Assembly (NCBI GenBank): GCA_964458605.1
Contig: CAYWLS010000009.1
Span: forward strand, 21,005-85,004
Direction of reading: 5' to 3'
DNA length: 64,000 nucleotides
Origin: an uncultured Hyphomicrobiales bacterium
Lineage (GTDB): Bacteria > Pseudomonadota > Alphaproteobacteria > Reyranellales > JAQSWP01
Both the position numbers and the translations under genes were made by a program. Under the pieces are notes generated by a model that made no database searches, was not told the DNA's origin, and saw only the letters and a list, made by a program, of their open reading frames with translations. Shown one piece after another: positions 46,160 through 53,058 of this stretch (position 1 is the stretch's first letter; every line of letters starts with the position of its first letter).

Positions 46160-47179
46160 GTGTCTGTAAAGGATTCGATTTCCGCGGCGGACGATCACAA
46201 ACGCACGCTGCGTGGAATCGCCTTCGATCAGCAGGTCATCGTCGGCGTCTTGTTCGCCGTCATCTTCGTGGGATTTTCCCTGGCCCTGCCGGGGTTTTTC
46301 ACCATCGGCAATCTTTTCACGCTGATGCGCACGGTGGCCGTGCTCGGCATTCTCGGCCTGGGCATGGCGATCGTGGTGATCGGCCGCGGCATCGACCTGT
46401 CGATGATCGCCTCGCTGGCGGTGCCGTCGGCCGTGGTCCTGGCCGTTGCCGGGGCCGGCTACGGCGTCGGCGTTTCGCTGGCCGCCGGCCTGGCCTTCGC
46501 CGTGGTGATCGGCGTGATCAACGGCTTCCTGGTCGCCTATGCGGAAATCCCGCCGCTGTTCACCACCCTGGCGGTCGGCATCGGCGTCGCCGGCATCGGC
46601 CAGAGCGGCCTGTTCGAATACGAGATCGTGCCGTGGCCACCCAGCCTCAACGCCATCGCCTGGATCGGCCAGGGCACGATCGCGGGCATTCCCTACTCGG
46701 TGATCGCCTTCGGCGCGGCAGCGATCGTGGTCTGGATCCTGCTGCGACGGACGCGGCTGGGCATCTTCGTCTATTCGGTCGGCGACAATCTCAATGCGTC
46801 GCGCATCGCCGGCATCCCGGTGCGGCCGATGGTGGAGCTGCAATATATCCTGTCCTCCTGCATCGCCCTGTTCGCCGGACTGGTGCTGTCGGCGTCGTCC
46901 TCCAACATGGACACCCGCATCTTCAACCTGACCTGGATCTACGACGTGATCCTGGTGGTGGTGCTGGGCGGCATCGGCCTGTCGGGCGGGCGCGGCGGCG
47001 TGCTCAACGTGCTGCTGGGAACGTTGCTGATCGGCACCATCGTCAACGGCATGACCATTCTCGACATCTCCTTCGAGATGCAGAACTTCATCAAGGGAAT
47101 GGTTCTTCTGGCGGCGCTGTCGCTGGACAGCGTCATCAACCCACGCAACGAGGAAACCGCGCAGCAGGGAGACATCTGA
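46160..47179 (+). CDS. CUT2 (ribose-type) sugar ABC transporter permease
   Basis: GTG start, 339 aa, polytopic. Contains VIGRGIDLSMIAS and the conserved loop GLSGGRGGVLNVLLG. Confidence 0.85.
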   Translation: MSVKDSISAADDHKRTLRGIAFDQQVIVGVLFAVIFVGFSLALPGFFTIGNLFTLMRTVAVLGILGLGMAIVVIGRGIDLSMIASLAVPSAVVLAVAGAGYGVGVSLAAGLAFAVVIGVINGFLVAYAEIPPLFTTLAVGIGVAGIGQSGLFEYEIVPWPPSLNAIAWIGQGTIAGIPYSVIAFGAAAIVVWILLRRTRLGIFVYSVGDNLNASRIAGIPVRPMVELQYILSSCIALFAGLVLSASSSNMDTRIFNLTWIYDVILVVVLGGIGLSGGRGGVLNVLLGTLLIGTIVNGMTILDISFEMQNFIKGMVLLAALSLDSVINPRNEETAQQGDI

Positions 47180-47236
47180 GCGGCGCCGCGGCGCATTGTG
47201 CAATCGCAAGACATCAACAATCAGGAGGGAGAAAAC

Positions 47237-50451: not shown

Positions 50452-51568
50452 CGCTCTCGCCTCGATCGTCGCCTCGGTCTTCAATCGCCGCGGCGCCAGC
50501 CTCTCGGTGCCGATCCTCGACGGCGCCCTGAAGCCGAACAACCTGCTCGAACAGGCGGTGGTGCTGGTCGAGCAGGACGGTCTGGAGGACATCGCGGTCG
50601 GACCCGACGGCGACCTCTATGTCGCTTGCGGCAAGGCGGTGCTGCGCCTGACGGATGGCGGCCAACTGGCGCCGGTGGCGCAGCACGATCATGCCGTGAC
50701 GGCGCTGGCCGTGCTCGGCGACGGCACGCTGGCTGTCGGGCTTGGCACAAGAGTGATGCTGGGCCGGCCCGACGGACGGCCCAGTGACCAGCAGGTCACG
50801 TTCGATCGCGCCGATGGAAAGTCCCTCAACGCCGTCACCGCCCTTCATGCGACGGCCGACGGCGCGCTGCTGGTATGCGATGCATCGGCCACCCGTCCCT
50901 ACGAGGAGTGGCACTACGATCTGATGGAAAAGGGCTGCAGCGGAAGATTGCTGCGCTACGACCCGGCATCGGGCGTGGCGACGACGGCGGCCGCCGGCCT
51001 GGCCTATGCGTTTGGCGCCTTGATGGACCGGCAGGGCCGCGTGCTGGTCTCCGAGACCTGGCGGCATCAGCTCGATCACGCGAAGGCCGGACAGGCCAGC
51101 CCGGTGGTCGCGGCCCTGCCCGGCTATCCCGCGCGCATCGCTCCGGCGCCAGGCGGCGGATTCTGGCTCGCGCTGTTCGCCTGCCGCACCCAACTGGTCG
51201 AGTTCGTGCTGCAGGAGAACGACTATCGCCGCGACATGATGCGCACCATCGAGCCGCGCTACTGGGTCGCGCCGGCGCTGCGATCGGGCGTCGATTTCCG
51301 CGAGCCGCTGCAGACCGGCGGCGTCAAGCAGATGGGCATCCTCAAGCCCTGGGCGCCGCCGCGGTCCTACGGCCTGGTGGTGCGGTTCGACGACGACTTC
51401 ATCCCGCTCTATTCCCTGCACAGCCGGGTCGGCGGCCGCCATCACGGCATCGTGGCGGTGGCCCAGCGCGGCGACGACCTCTACGTCCTGTCCAAGGGCG
51501 CCGGCCGGCTCCTGCGGCTCTCCGTATCCCAGGTCGAAGCGCACGAAGCCGCGGAGGCCGGCGCATGA
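50444..51568 (+). CDS. Strictosidine-synthase-like / SMP30-type beta-propeller protein (free-standing, divergent)
   Basis: The ATG overlaps the fusion gene by 8 nt. No signal peptide. Contains DIAVGPDGDLYVA and GCSGRLLRYDPASGVATTAAAGLAYAFGALMDRQGRVLVSETWRHQL, which parallels the Str_synth core of the fused domain. Confidence 0.7.
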   Translation: MLDALASIVASVFNRRGASLSVPILDGALKPNNLLEQAVVLVEQDGLEDIAVGPDGDLYVACGKAVLRLTDGGQLAPVAQHDHAVTALAVLGDGTLAVGLGTRVMLGRPDGRPSDQQVTFDRADGKSLNAVTALHATADGALLVCDASATRPYEEWHYDLMEKGCSGRLLRYDPASGVATTAAAGLAYAFGALMDRQGRVLVSETWRHQLDHAKAGQASPVVAALPGYPARIAPAPGGGFWLALFACRTQLVEFVLQENDYRRDMMRTIEPRYWVAPALRSGVDFREPLQTGGVKQMGILKPWAPPRSYGLVVRFDDDFIPLYSLHSRVGGRHHGIVAVAQRGDDLYVLSKGAGRLLRLSVSQVEAHEAAEAGA

Positions 51569-53058
51569 AGCCGATCCTGGAACTGCGCGGGCTGACCAAG
51601 ATCTATGCCCGCTCCGCCGCCGTCGACGCCATCGACTTCACCTTGCTGCCCGGCGAGGTCCACGCCCTGCTCGGCGAGAACGGCGCCGGCAAATCGACGC
51701 TGACCAAGATGATCGCCGGCGTGGTGGCGCCGACCCGCGGCACGATCCTGTTCGACGGCAAGGAGATCGCCCTGCGCGCGCCCTCCGAGGCGGTCGCCGC
51801 CGGCATCGCTATGGTGTTCCAGGAGACCAGCCTGGTGCCGTCGATGACGGTGGCGCAGAACCTGTTCATCGGCAACGAGAAGTTCTTCAACCGCGTGCGC
51901 GGCACCAATATCGCCGCCCAGCAGTTCATGCAGTCGCTGAGCTTCGATGTCGATCCGACGGCGCATGTCGCCAGTCTCGGCGCCGCCAAGAAGCAGATGG
52001 TCGAGATCGCGCGCGCCGTGCTGCTCAAGGCGCGCATCATCGTGTTCGACGAGCCGACCGCCACCTTGACGCCCGAGGAGAAACGTCACTTCTTCGAGCT
52101 GGTGGCGACGCTCAAGGCGCGCGGCGTCTCGGTGATCTTCATTTCCCATGCCCTGGAAGAAGCGCTGCTGATATCCGACCGCATCACGGTGCTGCGCGAC
52201 GGCAAGCTGGTGGTCACCGACCTGACGGCGAATTTCGACCGCGCGCGAATCGTCCAGGCCATGGTGGGACGCACCCTGTCGCACGAGCTCTACGGCACGA
52301 AGAAGACGCGCGTGCGCCCGGCCGGCCGCCGCGTGCTGCGGGTCAGCAACCTGCGCGTCGGCAACGTGGTCAAGAACAATTCGCTGTCGGTGTTCGCCGG
52401 ACAGATAACCGGCATCTTCGGGCTGGTCGGCTCCGGCCGCACCGAGACCTTCAAGGTGGTGTCCGGCATCATTAAGCGCGACTACACCAATGGCGGCGAG
52501 GTGTTCCTCAACGGCAAGGCGGTGCGCTACCGCGTGCCGGCGCCGGCGGTGCGGGACGGCATCGCCTACATCACCGAGGACCGCAAGATCGAAGGGTTCT
52601 TCGAGACCATGTCGATCAAGCTCAACGTCTATGTCGGCCGCCTCGCCAAGGCCGGATGGCGCAAATTCTGGATCAGGAACCGCGAGATGGATGCGCTGGG
52701 CGAGAAATGGATCAAATCGCTCCAGGTCCGTGCGGTCAGCAAGTCGGTTCGCGTCATCGAGCTGTCGGGCGGCAACCAGCAGAAGGCCGTCATCGCCAAG
52801 TCGCTGGTCCAGGAACCCGACCTTGTCATCTTCGACGAACCGACGCGCGGCGTCGATGTCGGCGCCATCGCGGAGATCCACCAGATCGCCAACCGCCTGG
52901 CCGACGAAGGCAAGGCCGTGGTGGTGATCTCCTCCTACCTGCCGGAGATCATGCTGCTGTCGGACCGCCTGCTGGTGGCGCGCCAGGGCAAGATCGTCGA
53001 GGAGTTCTCGCCGCTCGACGCCACGGAAGAGAAGCTGATGTATGCGGCGGTGCATTGA
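51565..53058 (+). CDS. Sugar ABC transporter ATP-binding protein (tandem NBDs, RbsA-like)
   Basis: The ATG overlaps the upstream stop (ATGA). NBD1 has GENGAGKST and IIVFDEPT. NBD2 has GLVGSGRTE, LSGGNQQK and LVIFDEPTRGVDVGA. Confidence 0.9.
   Translation: MKPILELRGLTKIYARSAAVDAIDFTLLPGEVHALLGENGAGKSTLTKMIAGVVAPTRGTILFDGKEIALRAPSEAVAAGIAMVFQETSLVPSMTVAQNLFIGNEKFFNRVRGTNIAAQQFMQSLSFDVDPTAHVASLGAAKKQMVEIARAVLLKARIIVFDEPTATLTPEEKRHFFELVATLKARGVSVIFISHALEEALLISDRITVLRDGKLVVTDLTANFDRARIVQAMVGRTLSHELYGTKKTRVRPAGRRVLRVSNLRVGNVVKNNSLSVFAGQITGIFGLVGSGRTETFKVVSGIIKRDYTNGGEVFLNGKAVRYRVPAPAVRDGIAYITEDRKIEGFFETMSIKLNVYVGRLAKAGWRKFWIRNREMDALGEKWIKSLQVRAVSKSVRVIELSGGNQQKAVIAKSLVQEPDLVIFDEPTRGVDVGAIAEIHQIANRLADEGKAVVVISSYLPEIMLLSDRLLVARQGKIVEEFSPLDATEEKLMYAAVH

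Follow-up and report, generated by a model that had tools for sequence, protein, structure and literature searches.

The stretch of DNA analysed here, hereafter the window, comprises 64,000 nucleotides of contig CAYWLS010000009.1 (positions 21,005 to 85,004) from the assembly GCA_964458605.1 of an uncultured Hyphomicrobiales bacterium, and carries between positions 46160 and 53058 a five-gene block in which an ATP-binding cassette (ABC) importer of the CUT2 type is combined with two beta-propeller proteins. The genes, designated G1 to G5, encode a permease, a periplasmic substrate-binding protein, a permease::propeller fusion, a free propeller and an ATPase with tandem nucleotide-binding domains (NBDs); the original prediction had listed five co-oriented genes in this order, and all five open reading frames (ORFs) lie on the plus strand where it had placed them. 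G1 (46160..47179, 339 amino acids, GTG start) is a CUT2-type permease without a propeller and matches BPD_transp_2 (PF02653) with 97.7 bits in Pfam. G2 (47237..48247, 336 amino acids, the longest ORF running from 47198) matches Peripla_BP_4 (PF13407) with 141 bits, and has a hydrophobic N-terminal stretch (residues 4-25) and a signal peptide ending at AHA|QQ. G3 (48343-50451, 702 amino acids) is composed of a membrane domain (residues 1-334, 48343..49344) with BPD_transp_2 at residues 56-324 and 10 predicted transmembrane (TM) helices, a linker (residues 335-375, 49345..49467; IRWFKNRHK...YVSP...) connecting TM10 and the propeller, and the propeller itself (residues 376-702, 49468..50451), a putative metal-dependent ester/lactone hydrolase. 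G4 (50444..51568, 374 amino acids) is a free six-bladed propeller, and G5 (51565..53058, 497 amino acids) is a single-chain tandem-NBD ATPase with two ABC_tran domains. Both predicted gene overlaps are real, namely the 8 nucleotides shared by G3 and G4 (50444-50451) and the ATGA shared by G4 and G5 (51565-51568).

Relatives of the G3 fusion were found in at least 576 species genomes in a scan of one genome per species, and 80 of the corresponding loci (numbered below with an L) were fetched for locus analysis. The host genera include Mesorhizobium, Thalassovita, Roseovarius, many Bradyrhizobium, Rhodopseudomonas, Chelatococcus, Variovorax, Hydrogenophaga, Polaromonas, Limnohabitans and Pusillimonas. 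The five-gene arrangement is far beyond chance, and the gene order is the same in every fetched locus that is long enough to display it (tblastn); the order is kept across alpha-, beta- and gammaproteobacteria, down to about 40% identity of the propeller. Plasmid copies at 50-57% identity, one of them in the gammaproteobacterium Pantoea, keep the block as well, and metagenomic representatives at 40-46% propeller identity show the same five genes; two further representatives, the fused P0257 and the free-standing P0291, lie on contigs too short for gene context. A survey of the block across genomes had been proposed together with the original prediction, which had itself named the recent insertion of the propeller genes into a non-conserved block as the finding that would speak against it, and recent insertion is excluded by the number of species and by the depth to which the order is kept.

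The coupling of the genes is likewise preserved, since the fusion, G4 and ATPase genes overlap or abut in annotated plasmid relatives, and the start of G4 overlaps the stop of G3 in the window and in all annotated relatives. Databases hold over 120 clusters of the fusion protein that reach 73% identity, all of about 702 amino acids and with identical domain order, and name them only 'ABC transporter permease', 'ribose transport system permease' or 'SMP-30/gluconolactonase/LRE family protein'. Identity to the window ranges from 68 to 93% for the fused propeller, from 66 to 93% for the ATPase G5, from 52 to 94% for the G3 membrane domain, from 53 to 93% for G1, from 45 to 93% for the binding protein G2, and from 43 to 73% for full-length matches of G4. 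The enzyme-like domain of G3 is therefore the most constrained part of the block, above the ATPase.

That the operon encodes a CUT2-type ABC importer, as predicted, is borne out by its Pfam and NCBIfam profile matches. The nearest systems in NCBIfam are those for ribose, arabinose, xylose and galactofuranose, every score being far under the cut-off, and no equivalog cut-off of the named transporters, those for allose and AI-2 included, is reached (RbsC 161.9 against 398, AraG 443 against 689, XylF 61 against 390). The best NCBIfam matches of G1 are RbsC, AraH and YtfT, all far under their equivalog cut-offs; in every related locus its gene precedes that of the binding protein, and G1 would be the partner of the G3 membrane domain. 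G5 matches the AraG, XylG, YtfR and RbsA profiles with 400-443 bits, again under every equivalog cut-off, and the AraG, XylG and RbsA profiles align with it over their full length.

Since sequence search returned no solved permease homologue, the topology of G3 had to be derived from prediction. An AlphaFold2 model built on 67 homologues places the TM helices at residues 25-46, 53-79, 86-103, 108-132, 137-164, 186-204, 228-254, 263-275, 287-306 and 311-334 and the propeller at 376-686, with two short helices in an arginine-rich loop (202-230) which, in the model, is likely to be the coupling region. Arginine and lysine are enriched at the N-terminus, in the TM4-5, TM6-7 and TM8-9 loops and in the segment IRWFKNRHK after TM10, while the alternate loops are neutral or acidic. 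Neither hydropathy nor AlphaFold2 indicated a further TM helix between TM10 and the propeller, and hydropathy revealed neither a signal peptide nor a hydrophobic segment in G4. Because of these 10 helices with positive-inside charges, the missing additional helix and the lack of any hydrophobic segment in G4, both propellers are predicted to be cytoplasmic, with an N-in/C-in topology for G3; the CUT2 permeases of Escherichia coli are also reported to have a cytoplasmic C-terminus, in agreement with this assignment. Residues I330, R331, W332, K334, N335, R336, K338, Y344, V345, S346 and P347 in the linker region are invariant in the 67 homologues, and since the linker itself is conserved in this way, its sequence argues for a fixed geometry of the propeller and not for a loose tether. 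Residues 337-353 of the linker have a low predicted local distance difference test score (pLDDT) in the model.

The strictosidine-synthase-like (SSL) or SMP30/lactonase fold, which the original prediction had assigned to both propellers, was recovered by Foldseek searches with the AlphaFold2 models. For both G3 and G4, strictosidine synthases and TGW6 come first (E ~1e-15, target TM-score ~0.75), and DFPase, the RPA3624 lactonase, SMP30, Drp35 and xylonolactonase follow among the lower matches of G3 and G4. The predicted match to Str_synth/SGL profiles is clear in G3 (SSL_N at 365-409 with 47.5 bits, Str_synth at 480-566 with 67.9 bits, SGL with 51.3 bits) but only marginal in G4 (Str_synth 25.7 bits with a cut-off of 25, SSL_N 20.3 bits with a cut-off of 18.9), which the model nevertheless shows as a confident propeller. 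By sequence, the closest solved relative of the G3 propeller is rice TGW6 (8kg3, E 2e-27), with strictosidine synthases behind it (about 1e-18). The rice enzyme hydrolyses the indole-3-acetyl-glucose ester, and in it E59, N167, N226 and N272 are remnants of the calcium site of the superfamily (PMC10958001).

When these positions are mapped through the TGW6 alignment and an hhalign comparison of G3 with G4, E59 corresponds to E387 in G3 and E48 in G4, N167 to D480 and T132, N226 to N538 and F190, and N272 to N585 (after D584) and R231 (after A230), respectively. In the metal-dependent propeller hydrolases of the SMP30/gluconolactonase/DFPase/PON type, blades 1, 3, 4 and 5 provide a central ligand set of E / N(D) / N / D. 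In 25 members of the family down to 50% identity, E387, D388, D481, D483, N538, D584, N585, H659, E667 and H668 of G3 are invariant, and D480 is D or N across these members, which span 50-100% identity. From its residues, the G3 propeller alone looks like a metal hydrolase, and is a putative ester/lactone hydrolase. It shares with TGW6 and other SSL propellers the six blades and the PNG and YPDN motifs, TGW6 being the best match in both sequence and fold for G3 as for G4, but the G3 propeller has acidic residues at E387, D480 and D584 where TGW6 has only E59 and no bound calcium, and it is fused to a transporter and predicted to be cytoplasmic. The chemistry of strictosidine synthase (Pictet-Spenglerase) was considered for both propellers and rejected, as the catalytic glutamate is absent: the positions of His307 and the catalytic Glu309 of Rauvolfia STR1, located at the aligned HFE motif, are occupied respectively by M661 and T663 in G3 (HMMER alignment; T663 is invariant) and by I336 and A338 in G4.

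The free propeller G4 is a paralogue of the fused one (hhalign probability 99.4%, 25% identity over 304 columns), and its AlphaFold2 model is a confident six-bladed propeller (pLDDT 86, predicted TM-score 0.87) with TGW6 as the best Foldseek match. The metal-position residues are E48, T132, F190 and A230/R231, so that the ligand set is not kept; among G4 orthologues R231 is invariant and F190 is found in most. Because two of the four ligand positions are lost (F190, A230/R231), G4 is, on sequence grounds, probably a non-catalytic or differently acting paralogue rather than another enzyme of the G3 type. The prediction of two enzyme modules in the operon thus holds to the extent that both propellers are real and conserved, but a second enzyme is doubtful; the pair may rather consist of one catalytic propeller, G3, and a degenerate partner, G4. 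G4 also has invariant residues of its own, and two of its elements are not present in the G3 propeller: a near-invariant 28-residue insertion at residues 281-308 (window 51284-51367; EPLQ..VK.MG.LKPWAPPRSY), and an N-terminal helix at residues 1-20 (window 50444-50503), both modelled at a pLDDT of less than 50. Either may serve to dock G4 onto another protein. Among the representatives of 50% clusters P0297, P0340 and P0287, some consist of two tandem SSL propellers in one chain and one has a PAN domain, which, at the level of the predicted domains, shows that SSL propellers are paired outside the five-gene operon as well.

The closest solved relatives of G2 are binding proteins of the ribose/allose type, distant at E 1e-15. 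The conserved polar ligand contacts of the E. coli ribose-binding protein (RBP) are D89, R90, R141, N190 and D215. In an alignment of about 25% identity, which is less reliable around D215, D89 falls on N131 of G2, R90 on M132, R141 on M184 (M or T among orthologues, T in most), F164 on Y209, N190 on the invariant W235 and D215 on a glycine run (261-263); N64 of RBP is kept as N107. The replaced positions are conserved over 86 orthologues. The G2 pocket is therefore read, tentatively because of the low identity of the alignment, as conserved family-wide and less polar than a sugar pocket. Four cysteines (C161, C229, C268, C329) are invariant in the same 86 orthologues; they might pair into two disulfide bonds, as would suit a location in the periplasm. 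In L027 (5671-7923) and L032, from Pusillimonas and Pollutimonas, the binding-protein gene is present as a tandem duplicate of two 354-amino-acid copies between the first permease and the fusion.

In G5, Walker A is GENGAGKST, and the signature of NBD1 (residues 138-144) reads LGAAKKQ, not LSGGQ-like, in all 78 orthologues; the Walker A of NBD2 (residues 286-294) is GLVG[AS]GRTE, conserved in the same orthologues. Because of this signature and the NBD2 Walker A, one ATP site of the ATPase seems, as judged from its motifs, to be of the consensus type and the other degenerate.

The block is bounded as predicted, by a 306-bp non-coding gap upstream and a bidirectional terminator downstream. The gap (45854..46159, plus strand), which extends from the acyl-coenzyme A (CoA) ligase stop at 45853 to the G1 start, is the presumed promoter/operator; a scan revealed no sigma-70-like site in this leader, and folding revealed no significant RNA structure. 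The intrinsic terminator (53089..53115) has an 11-bp stem that separates G5 from the SCP2 gene converging on it (53140-53439, minus strand), flanked by A7 on one side and by UUUUGCUUU (T4GCT3) on the other, and was not called by an automatic consensus terminator scan. Within the operon, a GC-rich hairpin of 10 bp (48262..48287, plus strand; arms GGGGGCGCCG...CGGCGCCCCC) lies directly 3' of the G2 stop codon and is followed by UUCCCUU; a 106-nucleotide segment containing it folds at -42.5 kcal/mol with a z of -1.98. From its sequence and position, it may be an intercistronic stabiliser or a partial terminator that boosts the output of the binding protein. An Rfam search over the block and its surroundings matched no family. 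The G+C content is 63-69% across the window, and the block is no compositional island.

Upstream of the block in the window (40682-45853) are genes for a GMC (choline-dehydrogenase-like) oxidoreductase, an aldehyde dehydrogenase (ALDH, minus strand) and an acyl-CoA ligase; in NCBIfam the ALDH is closest to benzaldehyde dehydrogenase MdlD and the ligase to the dicarboxylate-CoA ligase PimA, both below cut-off. As a set leading from alcohol to aldehyde, acid and CoA ester, these genes would fit the pathway proposed below. Downstream (53140-61296) follow the SCP2 sterol-carrier-like gene on the minus strand, a carboxyltransferase, two acyl-CoA dehydrogenases (ACADs), two enoyl-CoA hydratases and a biotin carboxylase, which constitute an acyl-CoA carboxylase cluster resembling atu/liu, in which no 3-hydroxy-3-methylglutaryl-CoA (HMG-CoA) lyase was seen. 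The exact neighbours in the window are kept beside the block only in the 93%-identical L001, and because the flanks are conserved no further than this locus, a tie between the block and the atu/liu-like cluster was dropped. Biotin carboxylases also occur near the block in two Rhodopseudomonas loci.

Beyond the window, the neighbours recur as classes. Clusters of flanking ORFs comprise acyl-CoA synthetases (21 loci), short-chain dehydrogenases/reductases (SDRs, 18), AraC regulators (11), ALDHs (10), family-III CoA-transferases (10), GntR regulators (9) and TetR regulators (7), and in 41 of the 58 loci that extend 3 kb or more to either side of the block (raw counts) an ALDH, an SDR, a zinc-dependent alcohol dehydrogenase (Zn-ADH), an acyl-CoA synthetase or a family-III CoA-transferase lies within 4 kb of the block. 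Loci L003-L021, which form the group closest to the window, nearly always have an SDR abutting the block and an ALDH after it, usually co-oriented. No sugar kinase, isomerase or aldolase recurs among the flanking genes of the fetched loci. The original prediction of an operon without an attached regulator or sugar kinase/isomerase thus applies to the window, but elsewhere AraC, GntR, TetR, LysR or SorC regulators stand beside the block. Similarly, its label 'sugar-type' is right as to the CUT2 family, but the cargo is probably not a sugar, given that G2 lacks the canonical sugar contacts and that the neighbours are of the hydroxy-acid/CoA type.

The most telling neighbourhoods are those of the most distant members, among them four lineages in which an APH kinase and an ACAD occur at the block. 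In Sulfitobacter alexandrii (L087), a co-oriented run consists of a phosphotransferase (APH), a small protein, an AMP-binding ligase, an ACAD, a hypothetical protein and the block; in L098 an APH and an ACAD adjoin the block, and in L099 and Chelatococcus (L048) an APH::ACAD fusion does so. The ACAD of L087 matches ACAD11 (8v3u) at E 2.6e-126 and 425 bits, other ACADs reaching 139 bits at most, and the kinase::ACAD fusion of L099 aligns to residues 212-764 of ACAD11, covering kinase and dehydrogenase parts. LvaA/LvaC and ACAD10/11 phosphorylate 4-hydroxyacyl-CoAs and eliminate the phosphate, thereby feeding beta-oxidation, and gamma-lactones are 4-hydroxy acids once their ring is opened (PMC12440821, PMC11342911). 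The module is not beside the block in the window, where an APH-like ORF with 24% identity to LvaA-like kinases (tblastn E 1.7e-20) lies at 664-1743, 45 kb away.

Several narrower indications of the cargo were considered. On plasmid pShin-02 of Shinella sp. HZN7 (L089, 4579-5904), a degradative HMG-CoA reductase (PF00368, 373 bits) ends at the start of the first permease, and mevalonate, the substrate of HMG-CoA reductase, exists as a delta-lactone; since Shinella HZN7 is the only host with this gene beside the block, mevalonolactone was rejected as a universal cargo and stays a candidate. A link to ascorbate or tetroses was set aside, as it depends on the single locus on plasmid pPAT9B04 of Pantoea sp. 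At-9b (L085), which has genes for a SorC-type regulator, a DhaK-family kinase, a triose-phosphate-isomerase-family protein and a TIM-barrel protein (tetrose/erythrulose-like) and, further, for a lumazine-synthase homologue, two ALDHs and a D-arabinono-1,4-lactone oxidase, in a context unlike that of all other loci. A link to itaconate/mesaconate through MmgE/PrpD, family-III CoA-transferase, MaoC and CoA-ester lyase genes recurs but is too loose. MmgE/PrpD-family genes are near the block in Thalassovita, L007, L009, L015, L016, L019 and Salipiger, and a small gene of the carboxymuconolactone-decarboxylase family (AhpD-like) is beside it in L085 (13708-14121), L091 (3286-3696) and L093 (14386-14706). 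One strain of Salipiger abyssi has two copies of the block on plasmids pPABY1 and pPABY4 (L092, L093), each with its own dehydrogenase and ALDH, which suggests paralogous systems of differing specificity.

The gene content, the fusion, its conservation, the folds, the paralogy, the conserved residues and the recurrence of neighbours are shown by the analysis. From these data we infer a topology, a catalytic activity, its coupling to transport, a pairing of G3 with G4 and a type of cargo, which together would make up the following model. G2 would capture a small, ring-shaped, weakly polar solute in the periplasm, and the heterodimeric membrane domain of G1 and G3 would translocate it together with the tandem ATPase G5. 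On release, the cytoplasmic propeller of G3, probably paired with the translationally coupled and catalytically degenerate G4, would hydrolyse an ester or lactone bond of the cargo. Ring opening would convert a neutral, membrane-permeant lactone into a charged, non-leaking hydroxy acid, a process that may be termed 'hydrolytic trapping'. The hydroxy acid could then be consumed either through the neighbouring alcohol and aldehyde dehydrogenases, or through a CoA ligase or transferase and, in some lineages, the LvaA/LvaC (ACAD11-type) 4-hydroxyacyl-CoA route. The steps of this model are not equally firm. We regard an importer with cytoplasmic propellers as very likely, lean slightly towards an action of the propeller on the cargo, and name a lactone as the cargo tentatively, at rather less than an even chance. 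For the reading as a whole, in which a small lactone or ester is taken up, hydrolysed at the cytoplasmic face and trapped as a hydroxy acid, we estimate a probability of about 0.45. A stronger version, a group-translocating importer in which cargo release and ATPase turnover are mechanically coupled to hydrolysis and the propeller pair is obligatory, is a good deal less likely.

A number of observations weigh against hydrolysis on entry. The G3 model is of moderate quality (pLDDT 70), the equivalences of the metal ligands were obtained by sequence alignment, and that of E387 from a sequence motif. In the gene neighbourhoods, 17 of the 58 loci are without any of the listed classes, the flanking genes are not orthologous between groups, and the acyl-CoA ligase in the window is only about 30% identical to the ligase that recurs elsewhere; part of the association could be due to chance or lineage inheritance, such genes being common in the hosts. 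The Pantoea locus better fits a sugar-derived cargo. Finally, the nearest solved relative, TGW6, is without a bound metal, and the bond that it cleaves is that of a glucose ester and not of a lactone (PMC10958001).

Among the other explanations, the best placed, although improbable, is that the propeller is a pathway lactonase: a sugar or polyol would be imported and oxidised to a lactone by a neighbouring dehydrogenase, and the propeller, fused for the sake of co-expression, would act on the cytoplasmic pool. The SDR that adjoins the block in the group closest to the window is in line with this scheme; in Thalassovita it exceeds the NCBIfam subfamily cut-off for 'glucose 1-dehydrogenase' (340.9 against 215 bits) and is followed by an ALDH. 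The matched model is, however, a broad SDR model. The succession would resemble oxidative sugar pathways, which are generally known to employ a sugar dehydrogenase, an SMP30-type lactonase and a semialdehyde dehydrogenase, and the sugar-type genes and SorC regulator in Pantoea would suit it, but no dehydratase or aldolase of such pathways recurs and the G2 pocket is devoid of the sugar-contacting residues. Co-expression alone, moreover, does not explain why the linker is structured and conserved, why a second propeller is obligatory, or why the fused domain is conserved to so extreme a degree.

Less probable again is a regulatory module without cargo chemistry, in which the propellers would bind a cytoplasmic metabolite and gate the ATPase by trans-inhibition or activation, like the C-terminal domains of MalK, MetN and ModC. 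Such a role would account for cytoplasmic propellers that are stoichiometrically coupled to the ATPase gene, for the degenerate site of G4 with its docking-like insertion (281-308) and N-terminal helix, and for an ATPase with one degenerate ATP site. It does not account for G3, which keeps a complete and invariant polar set of the hydrolase type, at the canonical sites, over 50-100% identity, beyond what ligand binding usually needs; and the regulatory domains generally known from ABC importers are on the ATPase, not on the permease.

There is also a slim chance that the cargo is a 1-O-acyl sugar, for example indole-3-acetyl-glucose, which would be split into a sugar and an acid, with the acid then being activated with CoA by the ligase next to the block. 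That the nearest solved relative hydrolyses this ester, that G2 belongs to a sugar-type family, that acyl-CoA synthetases are the commonest neighbours and that many hosts are plant-associated all agree with a glycosyl ester. Nevertheless, G2 does not conserve the sugar contacts, many hosts are marine or freshwater bacteria, the acidic metal-type site of G3 has no equivalent in TGW6, and the 4-hydroxyacyl-CoA module and the pairs of alcohol and aldehyde dehydrogenases better fit opened lactones. Lastly, a recent or accidental insertion or fusion of the propellers, or periplasmic propellers acting before uptake, which the unusual architecture and the N-terminal signal or anchor of many free SSL proteins (an offset of about 35 residues) might bring to mind, is hardly credible, as it is already contradicted by the presence of fusion and block in 576 or more species at identities as low as 40%, by the uniform composition over the block, and by the 10-TM, C-in topology with its positive C-terminal flank and a G4 without signal peptide, on which prediction a periplasmic location was rejected.

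With the known CUT2 importers (RbsABC, AraFGH, XylFGH, YtfQRT-YjfF, LsrACDB), the system has in common the Peripla_BP_4 binding protein with its signal peptide, the BPD_transp_2 permeases of about 10 TM helices and the tandem-NBD ATPase of about 500 amino acids, and, with YtfT/YjfF and LsrC/LsrD, the presence of two different permeases. It differs from them in the 330-residue propeller on the C-terminus of one permease and the second propeller gene before the ATPase gene, in reaching no equivalog cut-off of a named system, and in the ligand contacts of G2, which are not of the sugar-binder type; the NBD1 signature LGAAKKQ may be a further difference. To SMP30, gluconolactonase, DFPase, Drp35, XylC and RPA3624 the similarity is one of fold (Foldseek E ~1e-11, target TM-score ~0.7-0.77) and, putatively, of the E/N(D)/N/D-type ligand set of G3, whereas identity is 12-16%, the SMP30-type enzymes are free and soluble, and G4 lacks the ligand set.

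As regards pathway logic, blcABC (attKLM) of Agrobacterium and chnCDE of Acinetobacter lead from a lactonase through an omega- or gamma-hydroxy acid, an alcohol dehydrogenase and an aldehyde dehydrogenase to a (di)carboxylate. This second classical route for hydroxy acids set free from lactones matches the pairs of SDR or Zn-ADH and ALDH at the block; the lactonases of blcABC and chnCDE are free cytoplasmic metallo-beta-lactamase or alpha/beta-hydrolase proteins for which no dedicated ABC importer is known. Transport that changes its cargo is represented by the phosphotransferase system (PTS), including UlaABC with the ascorbate-6-phosphate lactonase UlaG, by vectorial acylation through FadL/FadD, and by peptidase-containing ABC transporters (PCATs), exporters with a fused peptidase. 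In all of these the cargo is trapped or processed at the transporter, and PCATs even have a catalytic domain fused to an ABC membrane subunit, but none is an ABC importer with a permease-fused hydrolase, and their chemistry and energy coupling differ. The lva operon of Pseudomonas putida and mammalian ACAD10/ACAD11 parallel the APH-type kinase, LvaC/ACAD11-type dehydrogenase and acyl-CoA synthetase beside distant blocks (PMC12440821), whereas the lva operon has other transporters and is not known to include a lactonase.

In the searchable literature we found no description of a fusion of an ABC-importer permease with a hydrolase or of the five-gene operon, in accordance with the original statement that no characterised example is known; the databases hold automatic names only, and one paper turned up by the search (PMC6759348) concerns unrelated genes. 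As a transporter, the block belongs to the CUT2 family without being any of the systems named within it, and its propellers belong to the SSL family. Its parts are known, but their combination is undescribed, and this combination is both widespread and under strong constraint. In the textbook view, ABC importers move their solutes unchanged, and such enzyme or regulatory domains as are known from them sit on the ATPase or the binding protein, not on the permease.

If hydrolysis on entry is true, it would be a third way of trapping nutrients, beside phosphorylation by the PTS and CoA-acylation, and would account for the way in which bacteria obtain lactones that are small and membrane-permeant. 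A function would also be found for the widely annotated 'SMP-30/gluconolactonase/LRE family protein' and for the 'hypothetical protein' beside it. The hosts live in soil, in freshwater and in the sea, and Bradyrhizobium, Rhodopseudomonas, Variovorax and roseobacters are among them. With soluble or standard components and culturable hosts, the idea lends itself to direct testing. Should group translocation itself be true, hundreds of proteobacterial species would possess a hitherto undescribed mode of ABC transport.

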